From Dehalococcoidia bacterium (GTDB taxonomy: Bacteria; Chloroflexota; Dehalococcoidia; Lucifugimonadales; JAGWBF01), in assembly GCA_965207935.1 (NCBI GenBank), contig CBDBNM010000002.1:77692-141691 (forward strand): a stretch of 64,000 bases of DNA, given 5' to 3'. Below are positions 16,755 through 53,305 of this stretch, piece by piece (position 1 is the first letter of the stretch; every line of letters starts with the position of its first letter). Below the pieces are notes generated by a model. It was not told the DNA's origin, searched no databases, and was given only the letters and a program-made list of their open reading frames with translations. The position numbers and the translations under genes were made by a program.

Positions 16755-17330
16755 GTGTCTGAACCGGATAGTGGTGGGGGGTCCAAAACGATGGTAAAGC
16801 CCCATAGCGCGCGAAAAGGTCTGGTCATCGTGAATACCGGTGAGGGCAAGGGAAAGACGACAGCTGCCCTTGGCGTGATCTTTCGCGCTTGGGGCAGCGA
16901 CCTCAGAGTCAGGATGTTTCAGTTCATTAAGCACACATCCGCGAGGTTCGGTGAGCATAAGGCAGCTGAAAAACTGGACATCCAAATAGAGGCCTTGGGT
17001 GATGGTTGTACCAGGAATTCGAGCGATTTGGAAAAATCAATCTTACTGGCCAAAGAGCAGTGGATCCGCTGCAAGCACAATATACTTAACGGCAACGAAG
17101 AGATCGTCGTTCTGGACGAGTTCACTTACCCGATGCATTATGGGTGGGTCTCTGTCGCGGATGTCGTCGATACCCTAAGACGACGACCCGAAACGATGCA
17201 CGTCATCATCACGGGTCGATATGCTCCCCAGGAGTTGATTGACTGCGCAGACCTCGTTACTGAGATGAGGTCGATTAAGCATCCCTACCATGACCAGGGC
17301 ATCAAGGCTCAACTGGGAATAGAGCTTTAG
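16755..17330 (+). CDS. cobO: cob(I)yrinic acid a,c-diamide adenosyltransferase (CobO/BtuR family)
   Basis: Motifs GLVIVNTGEGKGKTTAALG, VVLDEFTY and a C-terminus KHPYHDQGIKAQLGIEL typical of BtuR/CobO. Start chosen at GTG 16755, 5 nt after AAGGAGG. The ORF track begins at 16686. Confidence 0.8.
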   Translation: MSEPDSGGGSKTMVKPHSARKGLVIVNTGEGKGKTTAALGVIFRAWGSDLRVRMFQFIKHTSARFGEHKAAEKLDIQIEALGDGCTRNSSDLEKSILLAKEQWIRCKHNILNGNEEIVVLDEFTYPMHYGWVSVADVVDTLRRRPETMHVIITGRYAPQELIDCADLVTEMRSIKHPYHDQGIKAQLGIEL

Positions 17331-18935
17331 TGGTGTCGCGGAGGGCCATCGGGGTAATCCAGTTGGTGGGCCGGACTGGACGAAATCAAGAACCGAGGCC
17401 GATTCCCTGGTCACGCCGTCGTTGGGCATGGGCACCGTGTACGTCAGCGTCGCCTCGTCTCCCTCCACCTCGATGGCCTCAACGAAGTTCCGGACGAGCG
17501 CCTTCTTCTCCGGTATCGTCCCCTTCTTCAGAAAGTCCCGGAAGTCCGCCACGTACCGCGCTATCTCCTTGGTGTCAGGAATGGAAACCCTGCGCTGCTC
17601 TAGCTGGGCCTCGGCGTCCTCCCTAGCAGCCTCAAGCTGCTCCTCACGGTGCCTCAGGGACATGATGCGGGGCGACAGGACCTCAAGGGTCAGGTCGCTG
17701 GTCTCAATGGCCTCGTAGAGCTTCCCCAGACGCTTCCTCACGTCACCAAGCTCCGCCTCCACAACCTCCAGCCTGCCGGACAGCTCTCCCGCCATGGCGT
17801 CGATCTCCTCCGCCACAAGCTGCACCAACTCGGTGATGGTCTCCTCGGTCAGTATCCTCTCCCTGATCTTCTCCACCACGAAGGTCTCCAGCTTCGGGGC
17901 GTTCAGGTAGCGGGCGCTGCACGTCCCCGCTCCTTCCCTGAACAACGTCCCGCAGATGTAGTAGGCGAACTGGCCGCTCTTGGCTCCCTGGGCCGAATAC
18001 GGCCTGCCGCACACCCCACACTTGAGCAGCCCGCTCAACAGATACGGGCTTCCCACCCTCGCGGGCCTCTGCACCTTGGGGGCGCGCTCGCTCATCGCCT
18101 GCTGCACGGCGTCGTAAAGCTCCTTCGACACCAGCGCGGGCCACGCTCCCTCCACCCTCACCGGGTCCTGGGCCTTCTCGTTCTTGCCCTTGACTCCCCA
18201 CACGGCGGTTCCGGTGTACGCCTCGTTGCGCAGCACGTAGTGGAGTCCGCCCTTGTACCACCGCTTGCCCCTGTTGGTGACTCCCCTCTCGTTCAACTCT
18301 TTGCACAGTTCTTTGAGGCCGTAGCCCTGTAGCGACTTCTCGAATATCTCCTTCACCACGGAAGCCGTGGCCGGGTCTACCTCCAGCGAGGGACGCTCCT
18401 TGGGTCCGTCCTGCACCTTGATCTTCCGGTAGCCGAAGGGGGCCTTGGAGCCCAGGAAGAAACCTCTCGAAGCGGCCTCCCGCATCCCCCGGACGACCTC
18501 TTGGGCCAAATTCTCGCTGTAATATTCGTCCACGCTCTCGATGATTCCCTCAAGCAGCCTGCCGGTGGCGCTGTCCTCGGCCTGCTCGGTGATGGACACC
18601 ACGCGGATGCCCTTGCGCCGCAGCTGGGCCTTGAAGGCCACGGCGTGCTCCCGCTTGCGGGTGAACCTACTGAATTTCCAGACTAAGATGACCTCAAAGG
18701 GCGCCTGGGGCTTGGAGCCCTCCTCGATCATCTTCCTGAACTGGGGCCGGTCGGCGACGCGGCCGCTCTCGGCCTCGTCGATGTACTCGCGGGCCACCGA
18801 GTAGCCGTTGGCCTTCGCGTACTCCTTGAGCGCCCTTAGCTGGGCCGCCACGGACAGGTCCACGTCCTGGCGGTCGCTGGACACCCTGGCGTAGAGGGCT
18901 GCCGGCGTCAGGGGCTGCAGGTGCTTCTTCTTCAT
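17175..18935 (-). CDS. large serine recombinase (resolvase/invertase N-domain, recombinase domain, zinc ribbon, coiled coil)
   Basis: 586 aa. Motifs: ALYARVSSDRQ catalytic Ser, RPQFRKMIEE, CGVCGRPY...YYICG zinc ribbon, and a long coiled-coil region. The last ~52 codons are antisense to the cobO 3' end and are probably not native. Confidence 0.9.
   Translation of the reverse strand: MKKKHLQPLTPAALYARVSSDRQDVDLSVAAQLRALKEYAKANGYSVAREYIDEAESGRVADRPQFRKMIEEGSKPQAPFEVILVWKFSRFTRKREHAVAFKAQLRRKGIRVVSITEQAEDSATGRLLEGIIESVDEYYSENLAQEVVRGMREAASRGFFLGSKAPFGYRKIKVQDGPKERPSLEVDPATASVVKEIFEKSLQGYGLKELCKELNERGVTNRGKRWYKGGLHYVLRNEAYTGTAVWGVKGKNEKAQDPVRVEGAWPALVSKELYDAVQQAMSERAPKVQRPARVGSPYLLSGLLKCGVCGRPYSAQGAKSGQFAYYICGTLFREGAGTCSARYLNAPKLETFVVEKIRERILTEETITELVQLVAEEIDAMAGELSGRLEVVEAELGDVRKRLGKLYEAIETSDLTLEVLSPRIMSLRHREEQLEAAREDAEAQLEQRRVSIPDTKEIARYVADFRDFLKKGTIPEKKALVRNFVEAIEVEGDEATLTYTVPMPNDGVTRESASVLDFVQSGPPTGLPRWPSATPLKLYSQLSLDALVMVGMLNRPHLSNEVCAVNQLLGSISTRDDDVHRFGSSS
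17363..17394. repeat. left junction (attL-like): tRNA-Ile 3'-end-like core TTGGTGGGCCGGA, 7 nt, then AAATCAAGAACC
   Basis: Direct sequence comparison with 35115-35148. Confidence 0.5.
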
Positions 18936-19711: not shown

Positions 19712-19723
19712 CCCCGGTCGTTC

Positions 19724-21647: not shown

Positions 21648-21698
21648 GGGCTTCTAACGGCAATGTCCAGTAGATTCAACGTCAGTCATTGGACCGTG

Positions 21699-22585: not shown

Positions 22586-23014
22586 CTACTGGCTTGCCTC
22601 TGTTCGACGTGTCTCGACCTCCACTGACAAGAATCTTGGGGCGTTGAGGATTTTCGCACCCTGATGTTCCTGGAGGGGCAACAGATGCCGCCGATCACCG
22701 GTCACGAGGTAGTCGGCGGAAGCCTCCACAGCGCACTCCAGGATGCGGTTGTCCGCATGGCATCCCTCAATCACCTCCGGTAGCCGACGGGGGTAGATTA
22801 CTGTCCCGGCGTTCCCCAGCGCTCTGAGCACCTGGGACGAGCGTTACTCATCCCAACCGAACTTACGCCCTAGCACCCCGGCAGCTTCCTCCAAGATGAA
22901 GGTGGACAGGTAAAGCTCGAACCGACCCCTGAGTGCCAGTTCAAGCACAAGGCGTTCATTGCCAGGGAAGTTCAGGCCGGAGACGATGACGTTGGTGTCG
23001 AGGACGACCCTCAT
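22586..23014 (-). pseudogene. PIN-domain toxin (PIN_3-like) interrupted by an in-frame TAA
   Basis: The ATG at 23014 overlaps the antitoxin stop (ATGA). Translation gives MRVVLDTNVIVSGL...GRKFGWDE, then TAA at 22844-22846, then the same frame continues ...ILECAVEASADYLVTGDRRHLLPL. Confidence 0.7.
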
Positions 23015-23268
23015 GCACGGGCCGAGCCGATCTCGGCCCGGTACTCTTCCACCAGAGCGGCCACGTCTTCAGGCCCGATGCCCTTCGCCCTGGCCCGCTC
23101 CTCTCCGTACCGGAGAAGCTGTCTCCACTCCAACTCCTCGATGTAGCGCAGCAGCGCCTCACGAAGAAACTCGCTCCGGGACCGTCCCTGCTGCTTCATC
23201 ACCGCGTCCACCCGGTCGGCCATGTCCGGCGGCAGGGAGAAGGTAATGGTCTTGGTGGTTCGCGACAT
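23011..23268 (-). CDS. ribbon-helix-helix (CopG/MetJ-type) antitoxin
   Basis: 85 aa. KTITFSLPPDMADRVDAVMKQQGRSRSEFLREALLRYI is a typical RHH. It has a 4-nt overlap with the PIN gene. Confidence 0.75.
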   Translation of the reverse strand: MSRTTKTITFSLPPDMADRVDAVMKQQGRSRSEFLREALLRYIEELEWRQLLRYGEERARAKGIGPEDVAALVEEYRAEIGSARA

Positions 23269-23439
23269 GAATCACCTCTTGTTAGTCAGTCTTACCCAGA
23301 GTATGGCGCTATCTGCGGCTCACTGTCAATCGGTTCACGCACCAGACCGGCTTCCTGCGCAGACCCGCCTCACAGGGCGCGAGATTCGCAGGGTTGTCGA
23401 GGGGGTTGTACCCGTGTACAACAATCATGAGAAAGTAGA

Positions 23440-26400
23440 CGAGAAGCAGTCGGAGGGTATCGTAGCTGAAATCGGGGTGAATGGGGCATCCTGCTAAATC
23501 GCAGCGAGCAATCCGGTTCCGGGGTTCGCTCCACGGTCATGGGGCAGCCGCAGCTAGGAGATGGGGCAAGTGGAACATGGCGTTTGCGGAAGTTATGGGG
23601 CAGCGCCAGCTACGGAATGGGTCAAGTGGAACATTGATGCCGAAGAGAAGCAGAAGTCGTGGTCCTGAGCCGTTCAGTCCGCGTTCTCGCGCTTCGCAGG
23701 CGGCCTGGGGGCAGGCAGAGATTGAGACGCCTGATGCCGAAGGTGGGCGCGGGCGATCATTCGGGCCGGGATGCGCAGGCCGCGCCGCACCGTCTCCTGC
23801 TGCTCGACGGCGCACGCCTCAGCCCGGCGATCTGTCGATTGACTTCTCTCGTTGGCGCTTCTCATATTGCTCATCCCGCCGGCGTTTCATGGGCCGGGTG
23901 TGCGTTCCAGTCTGAGCGGTCGAGACGCCGGGCGTAACTGCCTGTACGACTAGTCACATGAGCGCCCATGTAGGGCCTCGGGCCAGCGAGCACTTCCGCG
24001 ATGCCGGTGGGCGGTACAGGGGATGGAAGTTGGTTGGAAAAATCCAAGTCGGGTCATTTCGTAGCTGATGCAGGGGCGAATCCGCCTCTACAGGCCGTAA
24101 CCAGTGAACAGTTCGACTTGCGGGTACGTTCCGGTCTGGAGTTGGATGCGCCGTAGCTAAGAGTTGCGTTTATGCAAGTGGCTGAGGTCGGGTCTGAGTT
24201 GGAAGGGCCATAGCTGGAAGTTGGAATTATGCGCGGCGAGGGAAAGGCCGCCGTCGGGATCGGTAAGCAGGCGAAGAAGGCTGCGGCGGGCGTCGTCCGG
24301 GATGTGGGGATGGTCGCCAGGCTGACACATGGGACGGTCGCACAGCCTGAATGTGTGGCCTACGGTTCCCGATTATTCGCTCGTGGCCTCGCACGTCGGG
24401 CTGGACGAGATAAGCGATGACAAGTCGTTCCTGCCCGTCACATCGAGCGGTGCGTGATGGACGCGCCAATGAAAGGGCGGATGGCGGAAACGTCGATAAC
24501 GGGGCCGGAGGGTTGTACAGAGAATCGGTCATTCGGACGGAGATGCGGAATGTACGCTGAGCGCGGTGGTGTAGGCGTTCGCACCACAACCTGGTCAATC
24601 GGAGGAAGCGATTGGTATGAAAGGGCCGGTCGCAGGGCCGTGTGCAGGCGCTGTAGCTGAGATGTGCATCGGTCGATGGCGGAGCGGTCATGGTCGTGCG
24701 CATTCTCCGTAGCTGGGATGTGCATGTTCTCGTGGAAGTCGAGCAGAATCCGGCGTTCGGGTTAGATACGAGGGCGAAGATGGCGGGCTGGCCGATTTGG
24801 GTGGCCTCATTGTGATACGTCAGCCCGTCGATATCGTCGAAGAGGTCGTCGAGGACATGGGCGACGAGGTCTCCGGGTTAATCAGCGGTCCCGCCGGTTT
24901 TGCAACGAAATGCACTTTTGGGAGCTGTTGGGGGCTGACACGGTAAGTGAGGGGAATGCCCTTTCGTCCCCTACAGGAAGTCCTGGGAACGGCTTCTGCG
25001 ACAATTTGGCAGCAAGTTGCGAGGGCTTCGTGTCGTCCGTTGGGTGACGATTCTGGGCAGGGCTGCGTAGCTATGAGTCGTAGCTGGTGGAGAGGGGGAC
25101 GAGAAAGCGTGCTGACAACCCCTGACCGGTGGGCTCTGCAACGGATTGTACTCGGATGGGCGGAATGGGAGATACGTGACCGATCGCGTCTGCAAGTTGT
25201 CCCAGCAAAGCTGCTGGGAGAGGCCCTATTGGAAGTGTCCGGAACGGAAAAGGCGGCCATGGTTGTACCTGATGCATCAGGGCCAGGGGCCTTCTGTCGA
25301 GGGCAGTGTGGCGGTAGCATCCATGCGTCACCCATGACGCCATGTTCGGCAGGAGCATCGACGTTGGTGGTGATGATGGGCACGTCGCCCTCCCCGTCGG
25401 CGATGTCGAGGAAGGCGGTCTCGCTGGCGGGAGACTCGAAGACGAATAGCACGTGGGGCAGATGTCCCTTCGTTGTCCCGTTAAGTGTAGGCGCTGCTTG
25501 ATGGTCATAACCCCTCGCATGGCGCTGTCACATGTGTCACCCGTTATGGCGTGCGGGGTTCTGGGGATCGCCGACGGTGCCGAACCCGTGTACAGAGATT
25601 TGGAGTTGGTGGTCAAAGTGTCATCGGGTCGTGGGCAAGCTGATTGGGAGGAGAAGGCCGCCTACAGGATCATTGCGGGAAGCACTTTGATTCCGGAGTT
25701 CCTTCCACGGTCATGGGGCAGTCGCAGCTAGGGAATGGGGAAAGTGGAACATGGCGGTTGGCCGGGATTGTGGGGCATTGCCAGCTACGAAATGGGGAAA
25801 CTGGAACATGGACGCGAAGACGGCTCGGAACGAGCAACGGACACGGGACACGAGGGTGTCGGTGGTGATGCGTAGAACGCGGCGACGGCGTCCTGGTTAT
25901 TCACGATCATCAGCCTGAGCACGCGATGCGGGACGCTGTGCGTGATCTCGCGGGCCACGTGTTGGGAGAGGCCGAGCGTCAAGGACGGCAGGACGGCGTC
26001 AGGCTCATCTACGACGTGAGAGCGTGACCGGGCGGACGCCAGGGACGACATCGTGGAGAAAGCTGGCGTTCACGACGCCGGCGGTGCCCCCGTGATGAAC
26101 ATGGCGGGAGCAAGCGATGGGGAGTCGAGCCCAGGGGCAACGTCTCTAGCCAGAAATTCACCGTGCCGTCGATCATGGGCTGATGCGTCAGACTACAATC
26201 GCCCAGGGGCGGTCTTCGGCCTGGGAGGGCTGTAAGGGGGATCGGAGTTAGTCGCAGAATACAATCTGGGTGATATTCGTAGCTGAATGAAGGGGAATCG
26301 GGGCGAAGCGAAGGGAATCCAGCGAGCAGTTTTACTGCGGCTCTATCGCAACTATATTGCACTGATTGTATTGTAGGAATTGTACTTTCTGAGGCATGAC

Positions 26401-26730
26401 GACCCAAGCGGTGGGCCATGATGAGCCTGTCGATGGACGAAGCGGCGGGTTTCCGGCGACGGCGTGAAGCCCCCTATTGGACAGCCCCTACCGGACCCTG
26501 GCGGACGCTCTGGTGGATGATTGAGGCAAGGTGTCTGCTGCTGCCGAGGCTCTGATGGGGTGAACTACCGTACGATCGCCGCAAGCTGTGAAACCGGGCG
26601 GGAGACGCGCCGGACGATGAAGGGGGTTTGGGGCAAAGAGAGTGCTGTAGAGGACTGATATTCGGCTGGTAGCTTCAGTGCGAGATGGTGAGATGGCCGC
26701 CTTCCCCGTGGGAGCCATCGGCATGTTCTT
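23440..26730. repeat. ORF-poor tract of about 5-6 degenerate tandem modules (~0.5-0.65 kb) carrying a recurring GTAGCTG / CAGCTA(G/C)G..ATGGGG..GTGGAACAT motif set
   Basis: TAGCT/AGCTA-centred motifs occur at 23463, 23552, 23608, 24062, 24154, 24211, 24654, 24710, 25068, 25081, 25726, 25783, 26280 and 26670. Four motif pairs are spaced 56-57 nt apart. Segments 23526-23640 and 25700-25815 align over ~110 nt. Confidence 0.6.
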
Positions 26731-29700
26731 CTAGCTACGCGCCAACCCATCTGGCCCCACTACGAGTTCCCAGGCCACCAGTTCCAAGTCCTCGACCGAT
26801 GGTTTCCTGGTCTCAGGTCGTGCGATAGGGCGGTCAAGTCCTTCGGCTTGGACAGCCCCTCGGAGCGCAGTCAGCGCCTGAACCACTTGCCCTTGTTCTG
26901 CACGAGTTGGCGCAAGCCGGTTTATGACTCTCACCGGGTCTCGCATTACCACGCGCCTGGTCGCGTCCGATGGTAACGGCATTTCAACCCACTCGTTGAA
27001 GAAGCTGAATAGGTCGGGGTGAGATTGCAATAGGTCGTCACGATTGAGGAACTGTCTAATGCGTCTCGTGAAACTGTCGGATGTAACTGCGGATATGGCG
27101 TCCAAGTATGCTTGGCCGATCTGGTCCACGGCGGCTTTCAGAGGCTCCTTTAGGTGTTTGAATGGGTTTTCGTTAGGCGGTATCTCGAAGCGGTGCTCAT
27201 CTCTGCCGGCCTCCACAATGGATAGGACATCACTTGGCGATGTCAGGGGTTGCGCCACGTTGCCCAGTGGATAGAAGCGCCAGAACACTTCGCCCGACGC
27301 CTCTTCGGGCATTTTCAGCATGACGTAGACACCGTTCGCCATGCCCTTCTTCACACTGTAAACCCCGTTGGGAATGTCCCGTACGTCCTCGGTAGCGAAC
27401 TCCTTCATCATGTCCAGATACCTGTTCAGCAACTCCGCGCCCGCGTCCAGTCCCTGGCTTCGCTCGCCCTCTCGGTACACGTGGTCCGCCTGGACTCCGC
27501 CGGCTCGCAGCTGCATCACCTTGTCCAGTTCCTTCGCCTCAATCTGCTCACCGAGCACCGAGGCGTCCAAAGCGACCGCCTCCTCTATGGTCTCAATCTT
27601 CCTTGTCAGGTTCTGAACCAGATTCAGTAGGTCTTCTAGGCCGTGCTCAGGCATCAGGTTGTAGATGTACACCTTGTCGTGGGGAGAAAACAGGCGGTCG
27701 ATGCGACCAGCCCGTTGGATCATCCTCACCGGGTTCCAGGGCAGGTCGTAGTTGACCAGGAACTGGGCATCCTGGAGGTTCTGGCCCTCCGAGAGTACGT
27801 CTGTGGCTATCAACAATTCGATGCCCTGCGCTCTCAGAGGCTCTATCTTCCTAAGAAGGGCGGGATCATCCAGAGGTTCGGTCTCGCGATGTGCTGCCAA
27901 GGGCGCGAACCGCTCAAGCACCGAACGCCTCCGATTCCGGTCATCTCCGCCGGTTAGCAGGGACATCCACCGTGCATCCTTCAGATTGCTCTGAACGCGG
28001 ACAGTGCTCTTCAATGAGTCCACATCTCCGCCGAACTGCTTAAACAGGTGTTGGGCGGTGTCCTTGTAGGTCGTAAACAGGGCTACCTTGGTGGGTTGCC
28101 CTTGGTCATCCTCTTTTGGCAGTCCTTCGAGCAGCTTGCGCACAGCCTGGGCCTTGGGGTCGCCCTGCTCGGCCAGCATCTCCTCCAGCCACTGAAGCCG
28201 AGTGAGAAGCGTCTGAAGCCTGTCCCGGTCGAACTCCACATCTGCCTGCAACCGCCCTCGAAGGTCCACGTCCTCCGGCGCAACAAGTTCCTGTTGCAAT
28301 GCCGCCACTGCCTTGGGGTCCATGTCCTCTAGGTCCTGGTCGTGGTCGGGCAACGAACCCCCCAGCACACCCCGCAGCTTGTATGCCTGCTTGGGGGTCA
28401 GGACATGTCCCTGATCCAGCCTCGCAAGGAAAAGGTTGAGATAGTCTACTAGACTTCTCACCGTGGACGTGAGCGCGGCCAGGGAACTCTCCATGCGCTT
28501 CAAGAGGATGGTGCGCATGATGCCGACGAAGTTGGCGTTGCGTTGCTTCAGTTGTGCGCTGGTCTCCTTCTCACCAGTCTCAACGCCGTACTCGTCCAGG
28601 CGGTAGACGGCGAAGTTGAGGTGCTCAATGGCGTCGATGATGTCGTGGTAGATGTTTCCATACAGGCCTTGCAGACTGTAGTCCACCGCCTTCGGTATCT
28701 CGTGTTCCGGGAAGCGCAGCGGCTGCCCATTGACCTCCATCGTCTCTCCTGCATCCTGCATGGACCGGATGTCGTGACGGGTTCGGCGTACGAGGGACAG
28801 CATCATAGTGTCCAGTAGGCCGGAGTCGGACTCCCCCTTCTCAATGGCCTGGAACGCCGTTTTGAGGTTGGGTATTGGCCCTCGCCCTGCGTACCAGGTG
28901 TCGTCTCCCCTCGTGATGAGCATGAGCTGGTGATACATATCCCAGACGGAGTTGTTGATGGGCGTGGCTGTCATCAGCACCACCCTGGTGTCCGGTTTGC
29001 CCCCTCGGATGATCTCCATAAGGGCGCGGTAGCGCTTCGTCCTTGGGTTGCGGAAGTTGTGGGACTCGTCCACCAGGATGACGTCGTACTGGTCCTGGTA
29101 ACGCTTCAACTCGGCCCGGAGCCGCTGCCGTTGAACGGGTGACGGCTCCTCGTCGATGTCCACGAGGCTGGGAAGCGACTCCATTGTGACCGTGGTGGCG
29201 ATGATTCCCCACTCTGCGAACCTGTCGGTGCTCCAGTTGTCCTGAAGCTGGGCGGGGCAGACGATCAACGCCCGCGTGGAGGTTCTCGCTCGCTGCGGGT
29301 CATCGCTCCGCTGGTTGGCGAATTCCCTCAGGATGCCCAAGCCTTCGTAGGTCTTGCCTAAGCCCACCGAGTCGCACAGCATGGCCCCCCAGTGGCGTCT
29401 CAGCAATGCTACGCAGCGTTGGACGGCCTGCTGCTGGAATCCGGCCAGCCTCCCCATGACTTCTTCCGACAGCCCCATCTCCAGGAACCGGCCGTAGGCG
29501 GCATGTAGTGACTTGAGCATGACCTGCCACGGGGTGTAGCGCCTCCCGAACAGGACACACTCTTCTAGGCGCTGGACGAACTGTGCCTTGCAGTCCTGGC
29601 CAAGCTCCCACTTCTCGTCGAACCAGCCTTCCAATTGCACCGTCAGGTCATGGTCGTAAGAGGTCAGGTTCAACTCGGAGTTCTCGGATAGGCCGCTCTT

Positions 29701-30303
29701 GGTTAGGTTGCTGGAGCCGACGGCGGCATATCGTCCCATCTCGCCGGAGAACAGGTACGCCTTGGCGTGAAGTCGATTCCTCGGCGAGCGGTGGTCCAGC
29801 ACCTGTTCGGGCAGCACCTTTCCTCTATCGGACCCGAGGAATCGCCTGACCTCCACCCCGTCCTTTCTCAGGAAGTCGGCCAGCGTAGTGACCCGCTCCC
29901 ATGCGGACAGGTCGAAGGCTGCCGCCTCCGGCGTCACTCCGCGTGCCAGAAGCTCCCGCCGTTCCTCGTGAGTCAGCAGCAGCCACGGGTAGCCGCCTTC
30001 GAGGAAGGTGTACCAGTCCACGGACTCCTCTGGGCCTCGAAGCTCGTCGCGGTCGCCGGGTTGGGACAGTACGTCTCCCGGCCCACGCCGATTCATGAAG
30101 GGCCGTTCTCCCAGCAACAGCCGCACTCTGGCGGCTCCCTCCATGCCATGCTTCAGGTCTAGGAATCCATCGGGTGTCAGGTATGCCGTTGCGATGCGAA
30201 TGTCCTGAGGGATGACGCGAGCCAGCGCACCGAATAGATGCTCCCGCATGAAGCCTGTTGTCGGCTCGTTGGCAACTGGAAGGACGTCTGTCTCATTGGT
30301 CAT
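26731..30303 (-). CDS. PLD-family (HKD) nuclease domain fused to an SNF2-family helicase
   Basis: 1190 aa. N-terminal motifs: IRIATAYLTPDGF...RLHAKAYLF...VGSSNLTKSG (HxK...GSxN). Then SNF2 motifs: DSVGLGKTYEG, ILVDESHNFRN, LMTATPINNS, ATDVLSEGQNLQD and WNPVRMIQRAGRIDR. Confidence 0.9.
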   Translation of the reverse strand: MTNETDVLPVANEPTTGFMREHLFGALARVIPQDIRIATAYLTPDGFLDLKHGMEGAARVRLLLGERPFMNRRGPGDVLSQPGDRDELRGPEESVDWYTFLEGGYPWLLLTHEERRELLARGVTPEAAAFDLSAWERVTTLADFLRKDGVEVRRFLGSDRGKVLPEQVLDHRSPRNRLHAKAYLFSGEMGRYAAVGSSNLTKSGLSENSELNLTSYDHDLTVQLEGWFDEKWELGQDCKAQFVQRLEECVLFGRRYTPWQVMLKSLHAAYGRFLEMGLSEEVMGRLAGFQQQAVQRCVALLRRHWGAMLCDSVGLGKTYEGLGILREFANQRSDDPQRARTSTRALIVCPAQLQDNWSTDRFAEWGIIATTVTMESLPSLVDIDEEPSPVQRQRLRAELKRYQDQYDVILVDESHNFRNPRTKRYRALMEIIRGGKPDTRVVLMTATPINNSVWDMYHQLMLITRGDDTWYAGRGPIPNLKTAFQAIEKGESDSGLLDTMMLSLVRRTRHDIRSMQDAGETMEVNGQPLRFPEHEIPKAVDYSLQGLYGNIYHDIIDAIEHLNFAVYRLDEYGVETGEKETSAQLKQRNANFVGIMRTILLKRMESSLAALTSTVRSLVDYLNLFLARLDQGHVLTPKQAYKLRGVLGGSLPDHDQDLEDMDPKAVAALQQELVAPEDVDLRGRLQADVEFDRDRLQTLLTRLQWLEEMLAEQGDPKAQAVRKLLEGLPKEDDQGQPTKVALFTTYKDTAQHLFKQFGGDVDSLKSTVRVQSNLKDARWMSLLTGGDDRNRRRSVLERFAPLAAHRETEPLDDPALLRKIEPLRAQGIELLIATDVLSEGQNLQDAQFLVNYDLPWNPVRMIQRAGRIDRLFSPHDKVYIYNLMPEHGLEDLLNLVQNLTRKIETIEEAVALDASVLGEQIEAKELDKVMQLRAGGVQADHVYREGERSQGLDAGAELLNRYLDMMKEFATEDVRDIPNGVYSVKKGMANGVYVMLKMPEEASGEVFWRFYPLGNVAQPLTSPSDVLSIVEAGRDEHRFEIPPNENPFKHLKEPLKAAVDQIGQAYLDAISAVTSDSFTRRIRQFLNRDDLLQSHPDLFSFFNEWVEMPLPSDATRRVVMRDPVRVINRLAPTRAEQGQVVQALTALRGAVQAEGLDRPIARPETRKPSVEDLELVAWELVVGPDGLARS

Positions 30304-30331
30304 AGTGGAGGAGTCTATGTTTACCTCGGAG

Positions 30332-30724
30332 CTACACTGAAACGATGCTCAGCCCCCGCATCCGCTCGAAATGCTGCGTGTTGTTGGTGAGCAGCGTCAG
30401 GTTGTTGCTTATCGCTGTGGCGCCTATCAGGATGTCCATATCTCCTATGAGATTCCCTTCTTCTCGCAGCCTGGCCCTTTCCGCGCCGAAGACCCGGCAG
30501 GCTTCATCGTCCAGCGGAACCACATTCACCGCTTCCAGGAACAGGCGCAGCGCCTCGGAGTCGGAATAAGGATTTCGGGATCGGGCCAGACCCTCGTAGA
30601 GTTCGGCCAAGGAAATTATGCTCATGCCGACTCCATCGGGCAGGAGTGCCTCCAACCGCCTGGCCGTTCTATCGGCCCTGTGCAGGTAGTCGATTGCCCA
30701 GTCTGTGTCCACGAGATACTCCAT
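30332..30724 (-). CDS. vapC: VapC-type PIN-domain toxin, with no separate antitoxin gene upstream
   Basis: 130 aa with YLVDTDWAIDYL, SLAELYEG, IGDMDILIGATAISNNLTLLTNN and HFERM. It starts 11 nt after the methyltransferase stop codon. Confidence 0.85.
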   Translation of the reverse strand: MEYLVDTDWAIDYLHRADRTARRLEALLPDGVGMSIISLAELYEGLARSRNPYSDSEALRLFLEAVNVVPLDDEACRVFGAERARLREEGNLIGDMDILIGATAISNNLTLLTNNTQHFERMRGLSIVSV

Positions 30725-30735
30725 GACGTTGGTTG

Positions 30736-33700
30736 CTAGAGCCTTGGTACGGGCCGCGTGCGGATGTCTCGGCTGGCGCGGATGTCTCTAATCAGTTCAT
30801 CCCCGTCAACACTCCATTTCCATGCACCGGCGGAGGCTTTCAAGGTGTTTAGTTTCCTCCAGTCCGACGGCATATCGGCACCCAACGCCTCGCGGCGTTC
30901 CCCAAGCCAATCGAGCATCAGTTTCCGTTCAGAAGCAGACAAGTCATACACATGAAAAACGATGGAGTCAATCTCCCGTTCGATACCCTCCAATTCTTCA
31001 GGCGAATTCTCAAAGCCAACTATTTCGTTTCCAAGCCGCTCGAGTTCAGCTTGGGCTTCGGTGCCGGGGGTTACGATAGGAGTTGGCTCGATGTAGCCAA
31101 TCTTGAACTCCTGAAACGAACCCCCGCGTGCAACCGTCAGCTTTGGGTAAAGGAAGTTGAGCACCGAAGAATTCATCATTGGCAACAGCCAACGCACTGG
31201 CTCAACTAGGAAGTTGGCAGGAGCGGAAATATACGCTTGGGATGTGTCTCTGGCAAATTTACTCTCTACTGCGAGGTTCCCCCACACAACTTTGGGGTGT
31301 TCGAACTCATGATAGAGACCCTCCTGCGGCTGTTGAAGCTCGTACCACGGGTGTAAATGTGCCGTAGCCCGCTCCTCAAGGTCGCTGCGAAACCACCTCA
31401 GATGGTCTCTGATGGCAGGATACTGATCTACGTCTACCCCACGACTCGTGAAGATGATGTAGAGTCCCGGTGAATGTGCCTTCCACCGCTTGATGTCCCG
31501 TCCGCGTAGCCACGGCTTGATGAGCTCCGCGCTTCGCGGGTCGTCCTCAATCAGTTCGTCACGCTTGTCCTGGTCTATGACGAACGCCTCGTTCAGACCT
31601 GTCTTGACGCCGTAGTACATGCGCCTATTGACGAACTCACCCAACGGAGTGCCCAGATTCATCAGCCGCTCGAAGAGGCGTATCAGGGCAGGATCTTCCA
31701 GAATCCAGCCATCCTTCTTCAGCATGACTTGGGGGAAATCGCCAATTGCGACCCTTGCGAGCAGCCCATCCAAGTCCTCCAACATGCCTCGCACCCTCTC
31801 GGTGTTGATTCTAAAGTCAGCTTCGGAGAGTTCCTTCCTAACGGGGGCGGATAGGTCGGCGACGGTCAGTGCGTGTCCCGCCATGTCATCTGCCCGGCGA
31901 CCCACTAACACAGCCGGGTACGCCGCGATAGCTTTGCCATTAGCTTCGAACAGAGGTAGATCGCCGAAATCGATTACGCTCTTTATGCGTAGTGAATTGG
32001 GCAAGTGTCCGCGGGTCCCCGCTCCATAGCCAGCCCGCATGTATTTGTTGCTGGTAATGAAGGCCAGCCAACCGCCGGGTCGAAGTAGTTGTAAGGCACG
32101 CGCGTAGAAGTAAACGAGGAGGTCCGCCCGTGAAGCGGCCACCTCCGGGAATGCCTCTCCATAGAAGAGTTCGTCCTCGTTGTCGATTCTCTCCATACGC
32201 ACATAGGGCGGGTTGGCAAGAACGATGTCGAAACCTGCCTCGGGATCGCCCTGTTGCAGGACATTGGGGAAGGCAACCGGCCACAGGAAGGGCTTCTGCA
32301 CTAGCGCGAAGTCCGTTGACTCCACTCCATCTCGAAGGGAGCGAATGCGCTCCATGAATCGGTCGGCTCTCCTCAGCGCGGCCTTACTGGGCTTCTCGGC
32401 TTTTCGTAGAGCCGCCCGCTTCTCCTCGGCCTTCCCCAGCGCATCTGTTAGGTGCAGAAGGATTATCTCCCGCTGGTCGCGGGCGATCAGGTCTCGCAAT
32501 TCACGGAGACGGGTCGGGTTTCTGTGTGTCCTCTCGAACTCCCTCCGCCGTTGGTCGATGTTGCGCTCCAATCTCTGGAGGCGGCTCTGGAGTTCCATGT
32601 CCAGTTGTATGCTTTTGGGCGCGGGCCAAGACTCCTTGAAGGTCACGCCCGCCACCCCGTCTACCAGCGAGTCGCCAGCCAGAATCTGAAAGTCCAGGTT
32701 GGGCAGTGCCCAATCGGAGTTCGGTTCAGGCGGCTCATCCATGTCCAACACCATAGAGAGCCAGAGGCGCAAGCGGCATATCTCAACGGCCTCAGGATTG
32801 ATGTCCACTCCGTAGAGGCTGCTCTCTATGATGCGCCGCTTCCATTCGCTCACTGTCCGGTAGAACTCGTTAGGCTCGACGTGGTTGCGCTGAGAGAAGA
32901 GAATCCCGCGACGCAGGGTCACCATCTCTTGGATGGTTCCTAGTAGGAACGCCCCTGAGCCGACGGCCGGATCGCAAACTCGCACCGTTTCCATCGCGTC
33001 GATGAGCGCATTAGCTGGGAAGTCTGGCAGAGGCTGATGCTCGTCCCTGGAACCAACGGCCTCTTGGCGCAGGGCCTCCAGGGTAGAATTTTCAACGCCG
33101 GTGGCATCACGCAAGTATCCGTCCAGGGCCTCCCGACACATGAAGTGGACAATCTCACGAGGGGTGTAGTAAGTGCCGGTGTCGTGACGCTCATCCCCCT
33201 GGTAGAGGTTCTCAAAGACCCGGCCTAGTAGCTCAGGATCTGGGTCAACGGATTGGTCGTCCGGCGTTGACTCTCTGGTGGTGAACCGATAGCGAGAAAG
33301 CAGGCCGAGGAGGGTTCGCTGCTGGCCTTCTTCACTATCGGCATCGGGGTCGAACACTTCGTCCGGCAGGGACACCTGCCCCGCGTCGTCGATGCGATCC
33401 TCCAGCGCGTTCCGACGGAACAGGCCACCATTTAGGTAGGGGACGTATCCCAGGACTGGGTGTTCGCTCCTACTGCTGCTCCCCGTCGCCATCGCATCGA
33501 AGAACATCGGGGTCAGGATGCCGCGATAGTATTCGCCCTCTTGCGTCTCTGCCCGTTTGTCCCAAAGATTCAGCAAGTAAGTCGGCGAACCCATCCCTCC
33601 GGGTGCTCCCAGCCAACGCTTGGCCTGAAGGAACCAGAGAAAGAGCACCCGGCCCATCTGTCGGGTGGCCCAGGCGCGGGCCTCCTCCTCGCCGAGAGAA

Positions 33701-34374
33701 GTGATTACGGGATGCTCCGGGTTGTGGGCTAGGAGCGCCTTGGCTATACGGTCCCGGACGGCGGCATACTCCTGGTAGAACCTGGTGGTTACGCGCTCAA
33801 CGCTGAATTGTTCTTGCCACAGTCTCGACACTTCCAAGAGGCTCGCCTCGTGCGGGATGCGCAAACCGCGCAGCAGATCTCGATGGAACCGAGTCGGCTT
33901 GTCCAAGTCGAGGTGGGCACGGACGCTGGTCACAGACCCGTTGGAAGCCCTAATCTGCGTGCGGGGAAAGACCAACTCAGCCTCGCGTCGCGAGTCGTTG
34001 GATGGAGGAACCAACAAGGCTAAGGCCCGCCTGTCAGGTACATGTTCTACCAGAGCGCGGGTGATGCGCCTTCGCGACCGATCCCTATCTGACGATTTGT
34101 AACCCCAGTCCGAGAGTACGCCGATCCACAGTCCAGCTTCCGCCGGTTCTGCCTTGCAACTCCCTACCCGATAGAGTTCGCTTACCCCGAAGCCTCCGTC
34201 GCCTCGGCCACGCAGAAACTGTTTGAGTCCGCCAGAAAGAGCACCAGCCAATCGGTCCTCTGGGCTCGGGACTGGGTCGAAACCCAAGAACGCGGCCAAG
34301 CTCCCCGCCCTCTGGGGATCGCCGCCGAAGTCCTGAAGGATACTGGCTACGTTACCGTCAGCGCCTAAAGTCAT
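30736..34374 (-). CDS. large N6-adenine DNA methyltransferase (Eco57I / type IIG / BREX PglX-like gamma class) with extra N- and C-terminal regions
   Basis: 1212 aa. Motif I is VCDPAVGSGAFLLG and motif IV is VLANPPYVRME. A TaqI-C-like region follows. The usual family C-terminus (VYDLSASERKLM) is followed by ~50 additional residues. Confidence 0.9.
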   Translation of the reverse strand: MTLGADGNVASILQDFGGDPQRAGSLAAFLGFDPVPSPEDRLAGALSGGLKQFLRGRGDGGFGVSELYRVGSCKAEPAEAGLWIGVLSDWGYKSSDRDRSRRRITRALVEHVPDRRALALLVPPSNDSRREAELVFPRTQIRASNGSVTSVRAHLDLDKPTRFHRDLLRGLRIPHEASLLEVSRLWQEQFSVERVTTRFYQEYAAVRDRIAKALLAHNPEHPVITSLGEEEARAWATRQMGRVLFLWFLQAKRWLGAPGGMGSPTYLLNLWDKRAETQEGEYYRGILTPMFFDAMATGSSSRSEHPVLGYVPYLNGGLFRRNALEDRIDDAGQVSLPDEVFDPDADSEEGQQRTLLGLLSRYRFTTRESTPDDQSVDPDPELLGRVFENLYQGDERHDTGTYYTPREIVHFMCREALDGYLRDATGVENSTLEALRQEAVGSRDEHQPLPDFPANALIDAMETVRVCDPAVGSGAFLLGTIQEMVTLRRGILFSQRNHVEPNEFYRTVSEWKRRIIESSLYGVDINPEAVEICRLRLWLSMVLDMDEPPEPNSDWALPNLDFQILAGDSLVDGVAGVTFKESWPAPKSIQLDMELQSRLQRLERNIDQRRREFERTHRNPTRLRELRDLIARDQREIILLHLTDALGKAEEKRAALRKAEKPSKAALRRADRFMERIRSLRDGVESTDFALVQKPFLWPVAFPNVLQQGDPEAGFDIVLANPPYVRMERIDNEDELFYGEAFPEVAASRADLLVYFYARALQLLRPGGWLAFITSNKYMRAGYGAGTRGHLPNSLRIKSVIDFGDLPLFEANGKAIAAYPAVLVGRRADDMAGHALTVADLSAPVRKELSEADFRINTERVRGMLEDLDGLLARVAIGDFPQVMLKKDGWILEDPALIRLFERLMNLGTPLGEFVNRRMYYGVKTGLNEAFVIDQDKRDELIEDDPRSAELIKPWLRGRDIKRWKAHSPGLYIIFTSRGVDVDQYPAIRDHLRWFRSDLEERATAHLHPWYELQQPQEGLYHEFEHPKVVWGNLAVESKFARDTSQAYISAPANFLVEPVRWLLPMMNSSVLNFLYPKLTVARGGSFQEFKIGYIEPTPIVTPGTEAQAELERLGNEIVGFENSPEELEGIEREIDSIVFHVYDLSASERKLMLDWLGERREALGADMPSDWRKLNTLKASAGAWKWSVDGDELIRDIRASRDIRTRPVPRL

Positions 34375-34877
34375 GACGCAGACTCCACACCGTCAATGAT
34401 CTTAACTGTGGCGTGCTCGAAATCCATCCCGAACTTCGCACAGTCAAACGGATCGGGATAGACGATGGCCCTGTCAGGTTCCTTCGGAAACTTCACGGGC
34501 AGCCACCGCTCCACCTGCACGTTCTCCTCCCTAAACTGCTGCAGGACCGCCAGCACTCTCTTGGCCTCGTTCACCGCCCTGTCGTAAGTGGGATGCTCAG
34601 ACTGATAGTCGGGGAACGGTAGACCTAAACCCCACCCCATGAACCCAACCCTGTACCTAATCATCTCATTCGCGAGTCGCTTCATCTCAGCGTCAGTCAA
34701 CTCGTAATGCTCCCTGATAGCCTCGGCACTGATGCGGTACTCGCGGGCGGCACCCTTTACCCGTACCTTGGACGCCTCAAGCCGTCCATCTACGATTCGC
34801 TGGCGGACAGCCTGGGGCGTGATCCCAAAGAATTGGGCCACTTCAGGCACGGTGTACATTCTCTCTTTGGTCATCAC
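34371..34877 (-). CDS. excisionase/MerR-type HTH DNA-binding protein with an unknown C-terminal domain
   Basis: MYTVPEVAQFFGITPQAVRQRIVDGRLEA is an Xis-family HTH. It has a 4-nt ATGA overlap with the methyltransferase start and lies ~240 bp from the right junction. Confidence 0.65.
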   Translation of the reverse strand: MMTKERMYTVPEVAQFFGITPQAVRQRIVDGRLEASKVRVKGAAREYRISAEAIREHYELTDAEMKRLANEMIRYRVGFMGWGLGLPFPDYQSEHPTYDRAVNEAKRVLAVLQQFREENVQVERWLPVKFPKEPDRAIVYPDPFDCAKFGMDFEHATVKIIDGVESAS

Positions 34878-35114
34878 GCCTAACTCACGCCTTCCATCGA
34901 GTCGAGTAGCGAAGCAATTCTAGCAAAGCACCGCAATCGACACAACCTAGCAAAGGCGAGAAAGAAATGGGAAATTGGGGACTGGTTGGGTTTGCGCGCA
35001 CCTCTGCGGATGAGGACCGCAGGGGTGCGGAGGAATCTCAGTCTCGTGGACCCACCACCCAAGCCGTCAATGTAGAGTCCCTGACTACACCTCCAGCTTG
35101 AAGGTCAAGGCGAA

Positions 35115-35148
35115 GGTTCTTGATTTTATCAAGCTTGGTGGGCCCGGA
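35115..35148. repeat. right junction (attR-like): GGTTCTTGATTT, 8 nt, then TTGGTGGGCCCGGA (the 3' end of tRNA-Ile)
   Basis: GGTTCTTGATTT is the exact reverse complement of 17383-17394. The core overlaps the tRNA acceptor/CCA end. Confidence 0.5.
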
Positions 35149-35212
35149 TAGACTCGAACTATCGACCTCGGTCTTATCAGGACCGCGCTCTAACCACCTG
35201 AGCTACGGGCCC
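35136..35212 (-). tRNA. tRNA-Ile (anticodon GAU), CCA encoded
   Basis: The minus strand folds as GGGCCCG TA GCTC AGGTGGTTA GAGC G CGGTC CTGATAA GACCG AGGTC GATAG TTCGAGT CTATC CGGGCCC A CCA. Confidence 0.9.
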
Positions 35213-47957: not shown

Positions 47958-49517
47958 TTAGTCGGGTGTGGTAAGGGGCGCCGCCGTCGCTCCCAAGCCC
48001 TCCTGGGCGATCATGCGGTTGACGGCGCTCAGGTAGGCCTTGGCGCTGGCGACGATTATGTCTGTCGATGCTCCCCTGCCCACGTACATCTCGCCGTTCT
48101 GCTGGACGCGCACCACCACTTCGCCGATGGAGTCCTTGCCCTCCGTGACTGCCTGCACGTTGAAGTCGGCCAGCCTGGCTTGCACCCCCGTTGCCCTTTC
48201 GATAGCCCTGCAGACCGCATCCACCGGCCCGTTGCCCGTGGCTGCGTCGCTGTAGGTCTTTTCGCCGGGCCCGGTTACCCGCACCGTGGCTGTGGCGATG
48301 TCATGGTCGCCTCCGGAGAACTGCACTTGGTCCAGCAGGTAGGTGGAGGGCTCAATCGCTACCCGCTTCTCCTCGGCCATCAGGGACTCAAGGTCCCGGT
48401 CGGTGACTTCGCTCTTGCGGTCAGCGAGAAGCTTGAAAGCCTCGAACACCCGGTCCAGGTCTTCGCGGGAGAGATGATAGCCCAGGGCCTCGAGGCGGGA
48501 ACGCAGCCCGGCACGTCCGCTGAGCTTGCCCAGCACCAGGGCGTTGCCCGGCCAGCCGACGGTCACTGGGTCCATCACCTCGAAAGTGGTGCGCTCCTTG
48601 AGGACACCGTCCTGGTGAATGCCGGAGGCATGCCGGAAGGCGTTTTCGCCAATGACCGACTTGTTGGGCTGGATGGGCATACCGGTAATGCGGCTCACCA
48701 TTCGGCTGGTGGGATATATCTGGGTGGTGTCGATGTTGGTGGCGACGTTCAGGATATCCCGGCGGGTGTGCAACGCCATGATTATCTCTTCCAGCGCCGC
48801 GTTGCCCGCCCGTTCACCGATGCCGTTGATGCAGCCCTCCACCTGGCGTGCGCCTGCCTGGATGGCGGCAACGCTGTTGGAGACGGCGAATCCCAGGTCG
48901 TTGTGGCAGTGGACGCTGAGCACTGCTTTGTGCATGTTGGGCACGTTTGCCTGTATGTCCTTCAGCAGGTTGGTGAAGTGGGAAGGAATAGCATAGCCAA
49001 CGGTGTCGGCTATGTTGACCGTCGTGGCGCCTGCATCGATCACCGCTTCGAGGAGGTGGTACAGGTATTCAGGCGTGGTTCGGGTGGCATCCATGGGCGA
49101 AAACTCGACGTCGTCGCAGTACTTCTTCGCCCTTGCCACCATCTCCACCGCCATTTCCATGACCTCTTCCCGGTTCTTGCGGAGCTGGTGAAGTATCTGG
49201 ATGTCGGAGCTGGACAGGAAAACGTGAATCCTGGGGGATTCGGCCCCCTGTAGAGCTTCCCAAGCCTTGTCAACATCATCGGGATGGGCGCGGGCGAGGG
49301 AAGCGATGGTCGGGCCCTTGACCTCGCGAGCGATGGTCTTTACCGCCTCGAAATCCCCCGGCGAGCTCGCTGCGAAGCCCGCTTCTATAACGTCAACTCG
49401 CAGGCGTGCAAGCTGTTGCGCTATGGCCAGCTTCTCTTCACCGGTCATGCCTATGCCCGCCGATTGCTCACCATCCCGGAGGGTGGTGTCGAATATTCTT
49501 ACTACATCTTCCGCCAT
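47958..49517 (-). CDS. leuA: 2-isopropylmalate synthase
   Basis: IFDTTLRDGEQS, HCHNDLGFAVSNS and a C-terminal LeuA dimerisation/regulatory domain. Confidence 0.9.
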   Translation of the reverse strand: MAEDVVRIFDTTLRDGEQSAGIGMTGEEKLAIAQQLARLRVDVIEAGFAASSPGDFEAVKTIAREVKGPTIASLARAHPDDVDKAWEALQGAESPRIHVFLSSSDIQILHQLRKNREEVMEMAVEMVARAKKYCDDVEFSPMDATRTTPEYLYHLLEAVIDAGATTVNIADTVGYAIPSHFTNLLKDIQANVPNMHKAVLSVHCHNDLGFAVSNSVAAIQAGARQVEGCINGIGERAGNAALEEIIMALHTRRDILNVATNIDTTQIYPTSRMVSRITGMPIQPNKSVIGENAFRHASGIHQDGVLKERTTFEVMDPVTVGWPGNALVLGKLSGRAGLRSRLEALGYHLSREDLDRVFEAFKLLADRKSEVTDRDLESLMAEEKRVAIEPSTYLLDQVQFSGGDHDIATATVRVTGPGEKTYSDAATGNGPVDAVCRAIERATGVQARLADFNVQAVTEGKDSIGEVVVRVQQNGEMYVGRGASTDIIVASAKAYLSAVNRMIAQEGLGATAAPLTTPD

Positions 49518-53025: not shown

Positions 53026-53039
53026 TATGTAACCTCGCT

Positions 53040-53305
53040 GCGCCTGATAAAAAACGACCCGTCCTACAAAGGGACGGGTCGTCTCCCGCGGTACCACCCT
53101 TATTCTCGGTGATGTAAATCACCAGAGCACCTCTGTGACATTAACGGCGTCGACCGCCCTTCCCTACGCTGTAGCCGGAATCCCGGTACGTTCAGGAGGG
53201 CCGCTCCGGGGCGAGTTGGGGATTTCGCTGCCGCCGGCCTTCCACCTGTGGCCGGCTCTCTGGGGGCGCTATATCCCTACTACTCCCCTTCAGGCGCGGT
53301 ACTAT
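53040..53305 (-). promoter_or_regulatory. T-box riboswitch leader of the ilvBNC-leuACD operon
   Basis: The minus strand contains AGGGTGGTACCGCGGGAGAC (the conserved T-box sequence, 53081-53100). It overlaps the 5' arm of a strong terminator, GACGACCCGTCCC-TTTGTA-GGGACGGGTCGTTTTTTAT. Upstream are an AGAGA box and a GGTGGAA distal motif. Candidate specifier codons are CUC (Leu) or AUC (Ile) within GCGAAATCCCCAACTCGCC. Confidence 0.7.

Follow-up and report, generated by a model that had tools for sequence, protein, structure and literature searches.

How is a toxin kept silent when its gene lies inside an apparent restriction operon and no separate antitoxin gene accompanies it? This question is raised by four genes in a contig of a Dehalococcoidia bacterium (Chloroflexota; contig CBDBNM010000002.1 of assembly GCA_965207935.1), of which we analysed a stretch of 64,000 nucleotides, positions 77,692 to 141,691, called the window from here on. 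All four open reading frames (ORFs) are on the minus strand and encode, in order, a helix-turn-helix (HTH) protein, a DNA methyltransferase of the N6-adenine type (MTase), a VapC-family PIN toxin and a protein in which a PLD nuclease domain with an HKD motif is joined to an SNF2 motor (referred to as the helicase; Table 1). Checking the ORFs reproduced the positions given in an initial annotation, and the tight packing that it described can be read directly from the sequence: the HTH and MTase genes overlap in an ATGA, the MTase and PIN genes are 11 nt apart, and 28 nt separate the PIN gene from the helicase gene. Its domain assignments were likewise borne out by motifs and by Pfam matches above the gathering scores (HTH_17; Eco57I, N6_Mtase and TaqI_C; PIN; PLDc_2, SNF2-rel_dom and Helicase_C). 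That annotation proposed the four genes as a candidate system of an undescribed restriction type that contains an orphan VapC. We find that the conserved unit is smaller, and that the VapC appears to have a partner at the C-terminus of the MTase.

The PIN protein has an intact acidic active site with D6, E41 and D97 invariant, and it matches the Pfam PIN family with an E-value of 6e-16. The closest solved chains are VapC toxins of Haemophilus, Rickettsia and Shigella, including tRNA(fMet)-specific VapC; the NCBIfam model for Leptospira VapC gave 98 bits, under its cutoff of 140 bits. The PIN gene starts 11 nt past the MTase stop codon, which is the position of vapC after its vapB. The operon contains no separate antitoxin gene for the PIN; instead, the MTase ends in a segment that corresponds to the C-terminus of the antitoxin family. 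The canonical VapB partners of the closest plasmid VapCs were set aside as counterparts, being of other types (AbrB-type and a 'GWPPGFF...AGS' type) with only a vague resemblance.

MTases that are followed by a PIN gene have a C-terminal extension of about 50 residues, and MTases of loci with no PIN gene stop about 50 residues earlier. This tail is present in all 17 PIN-bearing genome loci, in the window operon and in four further loci (L080, L081, L088 and L089), and is missing from about 25 PIN-less MTases with clear C-termini. At one locus (L007) the extension and the PIN gene have both been lost. Divergence of the tail correlates with that of the PIN (Spearman 0.42), in contrast to the MTase core (0.00), the recognition domain (0.05) and the 58 residues just before the tail (-0.02). 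Because the tail tracks the PIN and none of these parts of the MTase, the tail and the PIN seem to have been exchanged as a unit.

The origin of the tail is indicated by relatives of the PIN outside such operons. A metagenome scan found PIN relatives at 40-53% identity that are preceded by genes encoding 78-100 aa, with gaps of -4 to +6 nt. The products of these genes have an AF2212-like (DUF104) or other small domain at the N-terminus, and their last 36 or so residues share with the MTase tails a motif, AG.WKG.ID...L...IY..R...TRP...L, that extends up to the terminal TRPxPxL. A hidden Markov model (HMM) was built solely from the C-termini of 31 of these free-standing antitoxins and used to search 10,213 ORFs, drawn from the window and from 87 loci. 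The only matches were MTase tails, with E-values of 2e-16 to 9e-11 and of 4.7e-11 for the window tail (aa 1177-1212); the next match had an E-value of 0.034. In the reverse search, a profile of the MTase tails against 1.84 billion representative proteins gave 55 matches with a library-wide E-value of at most 1e-3. About 40 of these are proteins of 49-160 aa, mostly matched at their C-termini, several with an AF2212-like N-terminal domain. These comparisons of sequence show that the tail and the C-terminal part of the antitoxins paired with this PIN clade are homologous. The description of the VapC as an orphan can thus be dropped: by the same comparisons, the MTase has at its C-terminus the toxin-binding segment of the VapC's antitoxin family.

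Two of the small proteins (P0259 and P0266) contain the antitoxin C-terminal motif in two tandem copies, which suggests that the motif may be a self-contained PIN-binding unit. A word-based search with the 55-residue tail returned only four short proteins; the two of them that were looked up, P0121 and P0123, are frameshifted MTase fragments from contigs of 1x-3x coverage and were rejected as free antitoxins. Searching plasmids with the tail by tblastn returned chance matches only, on the wrong strand or in unannotated DNA.

We then asked which genes of the operon are kept together in relatives. A scan of one genome per species gave 79 loci with relatives of the helicase. Upstream sequence of 5 kb or more was available for 54 of them, and in 48 of these an MTase homologue is encoded upstream on the same strand (30 of the 31 close relatives and 18 of the 23 loci at 31-37% helicase identity); six have none. 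Loci with this pairing span Chloroflexota, Cyanobacteria, Deinococcales, Actinomycetota, Zixibacteria and Fraserbacteria. The two genes are directly adjacent, with gaps of about 50-90 nt, at L017, L023, L030, L034 and L036. Among the genome loci the PIN is confined to a close clade of Dehalococcoidia. Most relatives have a truncated or decayed HTH gene or, as at distant loci, none at all; six genome loci have it intact. Because only the MTase/helicase pair is kept, with the PIN limited to one clade and the HTH gene patchy, the unit is a two-gene core with accessories and not a four-gene system. The gene neighbourhoods do not support the four-gene unit of the initial annotation, and the PIN is swappable cargo. 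The sequences support the MTase and helicase as a restriction-modification (RM)-like module. At three cyanobacterial loci with PLD-SNF2 relatives (L043 2535-9554, L056 2543-9574 and L045 2651-9106) an upstream ORF of 2151-2343 aa replaces the MTase; the one scanned, at L043, has sigma-70 regions 1.2-4 joined to an AAA ATPase.

The MTase has motif I (VCDPAVGSGAFL) at aa 466-477 and NPPY at aa 721-724, and is assigned to the gamma class because motif I precedes NPPY and the recognition domain is C-terminal. Pfam matches were to Eco57I (E 1e-33) and TaqI_C (E 4e-9). The best PADLOC model was REase_MTase_IIG (E 7e-97), followed by DrmMI (E 6e-41) and PglX (E 9e-20); the NCBIfam models of BREX PglX gave 18-63 bits, all far under cutoffs of 400-900. 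We rejected a nuclease hidden in the N-terminus: aa 1-190 matched no nuclease family in Pfam, and no acidic/lysine (D/E...K) motif is conserved in this region across 22 homologues. Judged by these features, the protein is a methylase with a recognition domain and not a type IIG nuclease-methylase. Among 18 close relatives, mean pairwise identity is 48% over a 150-residue segment (about aa 953-1102) that overlaps the TaqI_C domain; the corresponding values are 81% in the MTase core and 90% in the helicase. This recognition region is the most variable stretch within the body of the MTase, and nucleotide homology with close relatives breaks at about 30985-31400. In clusters at 90% identity the MTase is the sole member of its own, and the helicase belongs to one of 287 members. 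Such variability is what would be expected if diversifying selection acts on a specificity subunit.

In the helicase a PLD domain (about aa 10-250) is followed by an SNF2 ATPase (roughly aa 289-935); the C-terminal extension, some 250 aa long, is uncharacterised. The helicase's HxK...GSSN, GLGKT, DESH and QRAGRIDR motifs are invariant among 40 homologues. Each chain has a single HxK motif, at H179/K181, which by comparison with Nuc, BfiI, SauUSI and the MANTIS protein MtsD would imply a dimer that forms one HKD active site. The best PADLOC match (E 2e-50) was to C3a139, a model described as 'HKD+Snf2' that may belong to Gao_RL; the protein is about 240 aa longer than this model and extends it at both ends. 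DrmD followed (E 1e-35), the NCBIfam DrmD model giving 144 bits against a cutoff of 610, and a weak PADLOC match to DrmA (E 1.5e-18) falls on the helicase core of this same protein. An AlphaFold2 model (mean predicted local distance difference test score, pLDDT, 67; predicted template modelling score, pTM, 0.37) had as its best fold match in the Protein Data Bank (PDB) the PLD-helicase restriction enzyme SauUSI (7clg, E 1.5e-9), followed by SNF2 remodellers. Fold matches of the PLD domain were NgoAVII R, NucT and Nuc.

Gene order, domains, co-occurrence and tail homology are the observations from which we propose that the operon encodes a two-protein RM-like module, with a VapC that is carried in the slot between the two core genes and is kept silent by the antitoxin tail of the MTase. 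We consider this reading rather probable. The MTase would recognise a short DNA motif and methylate its copies in the host, and the helicase would be the restriction subunit; by analogy with SauUSI and MtsD it would dimerise into one HKD active site, and it would use ATP-driven translocation to cut DNA with unmethylated motifs. Since the tail corresponds to the toxin-binding segment of this PIN clade's antitoxins, the MTase most likely binds the toxin and silences it, and would thus act as the antitoxin. Loss or depletion of the MTase, or its blocking by, for example, a phage anti-restriction factor, would be the trigger that frees the toxin. The freed PIN would cleave tRNA, probably initiator tRNA, and halt translation. 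The outcome, by analogy with PrrC of EcoprrI, might be a back-up abortive response or an addiction lock. It is possible, and we say so tentatively, that an MTase captured a VapB-type toxin-binding peptide and guards a VapC tRNase with it, giving a hard-wired link between RM and toxin-antitoxin (TA) functions in a two-protein system with no AAA+ loader.

Several points weigh against this proposal. At one locus (L015) the tail is kept with an unrelated gene in place of the PIN, the sole PIN-less locus that has a tail. The covariation of tail and PIN is explicable by physical linkage alone, the two being 11 nt apart. The helicase model is of only moderate quality. A post-segregational role needs a labile antitoxin, and an enzyme of 1212 aa may not be labile. 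A further point comes from MANTIS (formerly Gao_RL; Gao_29), a DUF499-centred BREX-related type 2 system that is related to Hma and consists of an AAA+ DUF499 loader (MtsA), a DUF3780 protein (MtsB), an N6-adenine MTase and an HKD-SF2 effector (PMC12839542; bioRxiv 10.64898/2026.09.23.753747). In MANTIS the MTase binds no DNA without MtsA, neither methylation nor restriction takes place unless MtsA and MtsB are both present, and all four proteins are required to restrict (bioRxiv 10.64898/2026.09.23.753747). Given this requirement, a two-protein version may work differently or need an unlinked partner.

The contents of the slot bear on what the PIN is for. The PIN occupies it alone in the window operon and at L011 and L018; elsewhere it is accompanied by proteins of 311 and 164 aa or by a Schlafen-like protein of 453 aa, and at PIN-less loci the slot is taken by type IV nucleases of the GmrSD kind in fusion with a Schlafen AlbA_2 or HEPN-like domain (Table 1). 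Genes that follow the PIN in close relatives and have no Pfam match (the pair of 311 and 164 aa and proteins of 423 and 573 aa) are candidates for new embedded defence genes. Embedding of defence genes is known for Hma, BREX, DISARM and type I systems, and the embedded genes were mostly defence genes when tested (bioRxiv 10.1101/2024.01.29.577857). This precedent, together with the bona fide defence genes in the slots of relatives (GmrSD, Schlafen-like), makes it unlikely that the PIN and tail serve only as an addiction module, one that stabilises the operon or island by making it lethal to lose the MTase gene and has no role in phage defence. RM modules already give post-segregational killing, and a large stable enzyme is a poor labile antitoxin. 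The location of the operon on a mobile island with a serine recombinase nonetheless fits such a role, as does the swapping of tail and PIN as a unit between otherwise similar operons, and TA modules are known to stabilise defence islands (PMC5499597).

Co-occurrence and homology would look the same if the tail tethered the PIN as a working effector of the MTase complex, cutting, for example, phage transcripts or nucleic acid at recognised sites, and lists of auxiliary or back-up effectors from BREX and BR loci include PIN endoRNases. We think this improbable. In the free-standing relatives the segment is found in small proteins at the antitoxin position, directly upstream of the PIN, and in solved VapBC complexes the C-terminus of the antitoxin blocks the active site.

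The two core genes could also be independent neighbours: an orphan or type IIG-like MTase beside a self-contained PLD-helicase nuclease that, like SauUSI, depends on modification (type IV). A type IV enzyme gave the best fold match to the helicase, whose C-terminal extension could be a reader domain, and six of the 54 loci have no MTase. A same-strand pairing at the other 48, across phyla and often with gaps of about 50 nt, is unexpected for independent genes, however, and the MTase has no nuclease of its own. PADLOC also puts the helicase nearest to the 'HKD+Snf2' and DrmD models of methylation-based systems, so that we give this explanation little credence.

We looked for the defining partners of named systems with Pfam and PADLOC in the ORFs flanking the operon and in five more window ORFs of 534-644 aa; the 519-aa ORF 47958..49517 was left out, and a 2099-aa ORF was scanned with Pfam only. 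Models of DrmA/DrmB, PglZ, BrxC and DUF499/HmaC matched none of the flanking ORFs or the five others, in line with the initial annotation, which had recognised no defining DISARM or BREX partner, and such genes were not met among the larger neighbouring ORFs scanned in related loci. PADLOC matched no other ORF scanned in the window outside the operon. Four ORFs scanned for a standalone DUF3780 protein (MtsB), at 26488-26724, 26009-26419, 24820-25452 and 24227-24703, have no Pfam, PADLOC or NCBIfam match. That the operon is a decayed, non-working remnant of DISARM, BREX or MANTIS, as its best named matches (DrmD/DrmMI, PglX and HKD+Snf2 models) and the decay of the HTH gene in many relatives might hint, is very improbable given intact ORFs, invariant catalytic residues, a two-gene arrangement in dozens of species of several phyla and no partner genes in the ORFs scanned.

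Table 1. Features of the operon, its island and related loci. Positions are those of the window or, where a locus is named, of that locus.
Feature	Position	Strand	Basis
HTH_17 (excisionase/MerR-type) protein, 167-168 aa; accessory gene, outside the core	34371..34877	-	Pfam HTH_17
Gamma-class N6-adenine DNA methyltransferase (MTase), type IIG/PglX-like, 1212 aa	30736..34374	-	Pfam, PADLOC
TaqI_C-like target-recognition domain, MTase aa 954-1100	31075..31515	-	Pfam TaqI_C
MTase C-terminal tail, aa 1177-1212, SAGAWKWSVDGDELIRDIRASRDIRTRPVPRL, putative fused VapB-type toxin-binding segment	30739..30846	-	HMM matches
VapC-family PIN toxin of 130 aa, a relative of tRNA(fMet)-specific endonucleases	30332..30724	-	Pfam, PDB chains
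PLD(HKD)-SNF2 motor-nuclease, 1190 aa	26731..30303	-	Pfam, PADLOC, AlphaFold2
Promoter-like block (TTGTGT-17 nt-TAGAAT), upstream of the HTH start by about 50 nt	34917..34945	-	Sequence reading
tRNA-Ile(GAU), island boundary; operon directly downstream	35136..35212	-	ARAGORN, Rfam
Large serine recombinase (Resolvase, Recombinase, Zn_ribbon_recom)	17175..18935	-	Pfam
GmrSD-Schlafen or GmrSD-HEPN slot genes	L024 7614-9962; L032 7842-9956; L035 4076-6178; L059 7613-9685		
Conserved genes after the PIN, no Pfam match	L001 8575-10004; L003 8442-9919; L005 8715-9986; L010 8047-9768		

The operon is cargo of an integrative island of about 18 kb that is bounded by a tRNA-Ile gene and probably by a large serine recombinase gene. 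Homology with related islands ends at the 3' end of the tRNA; among these islands L002 adjoins a tRNA-Ala gene, and L001 and L016 have a tRNA-Asn gene near the recombinase side. A stretch 88% identical to the recombinase region was found downstream of the operon in L001, and the recombinase at that far end is probably the island's integrase. We found no direct repeats of the tRNA 3' end that could be attachment sites, an absence that fits a serine recombinase.

The first gene of the operon was listed with a GTG start; the second codon, an ATG at 34874, is the more likely start. Its product matches HTH_17 at 27.9 bits (cutoff 27) and TIGR01764 at 20.4 bits (cutoff 28.8). A PADLOC match to mad1 (E 3e-6) spans only the HTH part, and the C-terminal domain of about 100 aa is uncharacterised. 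The protein may be an accessory factor, either a controller or regulator or a directionality factor for the recombinase. The promoter-like block upstream of this gene is kept in four relatives (L002, L003, L019 and L028) and may be the promoter of the operon; a generic scan for promoters and terminators gave nothing above chance and did not flag it. Between this element and the tRNA-Ile gene, on the downstream side of the latter, is an inverted repeat of 13 nt with a 7-nt loop (34997-35029), which may be a tRNA terminator or a regulatory site.

Elsewhere in the island, just downstream of the operon, are two 123-nt copies (23464-23634 and 25638-25809) that are 74% identical and 2174 nt apart, each containing two 43-nt repeats with a spacing of 56-57 nt. 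In the region 23000-27000 that bears them the GC skew is unusually high, reaching +0.245, and long ORFs are few; nothing there matched Pfam, PADLOC, NCBIfam or Rfam. Beside the recombinase, at 19148-22583, are genes for a 318-aa PD-(D/E)xK 'REase-ARP' protein, two proteins without matches and one of 294 aa that resembles DUF4238 weakly (25.6 bits, under the 27-bit cutoff); these may be further defence genes. The 2099-aa ORF (10052-16351, minus strand), whose start is no more than about 1 kb from the island's recombinase end, encodes a giant surface protein of fibronectin type III, cadherin and Ig-like repeats. In the remainder of the window, a 5'-truncated tRNA-like fragment of 59 nt (7490-7548, minus strand; Rfam tRNA 36.6 bits, no ARAGORN call) was rejected as a duplicate of tRNA-Ile. 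A T-box leader (53067-53301, minus strand; 107 bits) is upstream of a 597-aa ORF (51304-53097), presumably an aminoacyl-tRNA synthetase or related gene.

The core is a new form of the known methylation-based HKD-SNF2 restriction-like systems. Its most interesting and least expected feature is the VapC with an antitoxin peptide fused to the methylase, for which the sequence evidence is strong. PIN genes without antitoxins have been noted near RM genes (PMC5499597), and an antitoxin peptide inside the methylase is a candidate answer to how these are controlled. If our proposal is true, it shows how back-up immunity of the guard type can be built at the molecular level, by wiring a suicide RNase to a restriction system; through this physical link between RM and TA, phage anti-restriction proteins, degradation or gene loss would free the toxin and abort infection. 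The 36-residue tail would then also be a tag that could be searched for on other defence proteins. The MTase and HKD-SNF2 core is widespread in Chloroflexota and other phyla. The AAA+ loader that MANTIS cannot do without is absent from it, which makes it a natural minimal system for studying the purpose of the loader and the coupling of an HKD-SNF2 motor-nuclease to a methylase.

Comparison with known systems supports the initial annotation in its view that the system is undescribed, no named system with this exact make-up and no account of such a two-gene arrangement being found in the literature searched, which did not cover REBASE or DefenseFinder. The likenesses that it drew to a split type ISP enzyme, to DISARM and to BREX are real; the closest described relative is one that it did not name, MANTIS/Gao_RL. 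As in MANTIS, PLDc_2, SNF2-rel_dom and Helicase_C are joined in one protein beside an N6-adenine MTase, so that a specificity-setting MTase and an effector made of an N-terminal HKD/PLD nuclease and an SF2/SNF2 ATPase share an operon. A small repressor gene is optional in both, other defence genes are often embedded, and the helicase fold resembles SauUSI as reported for MtsD. Unlike MANTIS, the window operon has no DUF499 AAA+ loader and no DUF3780 protein, its MTase is a type IIG/PglX-like protein with REase_MTase_IIG as best models, and its helicase is longer than 'HKD+Snf2'. Class 1 DISARM (DrmD SNF2, DrmMI, DrmA, DrmB and DrmC PLD) likewise has a PLD nuclease alongside an N6-adenine MTase and an SNF2 ATPase, but DrmA/DrmB (DUF1998) were not found in the scanned ORFs, and in the window the PLD and SNF2 parts are fused. 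BREX differs in PglZ and BrxC, unmatched in the scanned window ORFs, and in PglX, whose models stayed under cutoff. Type IIG enzymes differ in their endonuclease domain, which is not recognisable in the window MTase although its methylase and recognition parts match REase_MTase_IIG.

Type ISP (LlaGI, LlaBIII) and type III enzymes also bring an SF2 motor and a nuclease together with a gamma-type MTase and a recognition domain. Type ISP enzymes are one polypeptide with an Mrr/PD-(D/E)xK nuclease, whereas the window system is two polypeptides with an N-terminal HKD nuclease; type III systems have a Res subunit with a C-terminal PD-(D/E)xK nuclease and a different class of Mod. Their logic of one short, probably asymmetric site likely applies to the window module too. 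Because defining features of MANTIS, DISARM, BREX, type IIG and type ISP were not found, we place the module in none of them; it probably shares their working logic.

The toxin has its own relatives. VapBC systems with AF2212-like (DUF104) antitoxins share the PIN clade, the antitoxin C-terminal motif and the position of the PIN gene directly after it; in contrast to them, the window has no separate antitoxin gene, and the N-terminal domain of the antitoxin appears to be replaced by 1176 residues of DNA methyltransferase. PrrC is reportedly a tRNA-cutting anticodon nuclease of ABC-ATPase/HEPN type that is silent under the RM proteins of the type Ic system EcoprrI (prrA-prrB-prrC-prrD) and is freed by a phage anti-restriction peptide. 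There, as here, a toxin gene lies between modification/specificity and restriction genes and has no separate antitoxin gene. Unlike PrrC, the window toxin is a PIN, and a peptide of the antitoxin family is fused to the MTase; to our knowledge the subunits of EcoprrI have no recognisable fused antitoxin peptide. The initial annotation regarded a PIN toxin embedded between modification and nuclease-motor genes as unprecedented. Precedents are PrrC in EcoprrI, PrrC being almost always embedded in type I systems (bioRxiv 10.1101/2024.01.29.577857), the genes embedded in Hma, BREX, DISARM and type I systems, and the PINs that adjoin type I subunits (PMC5499597).

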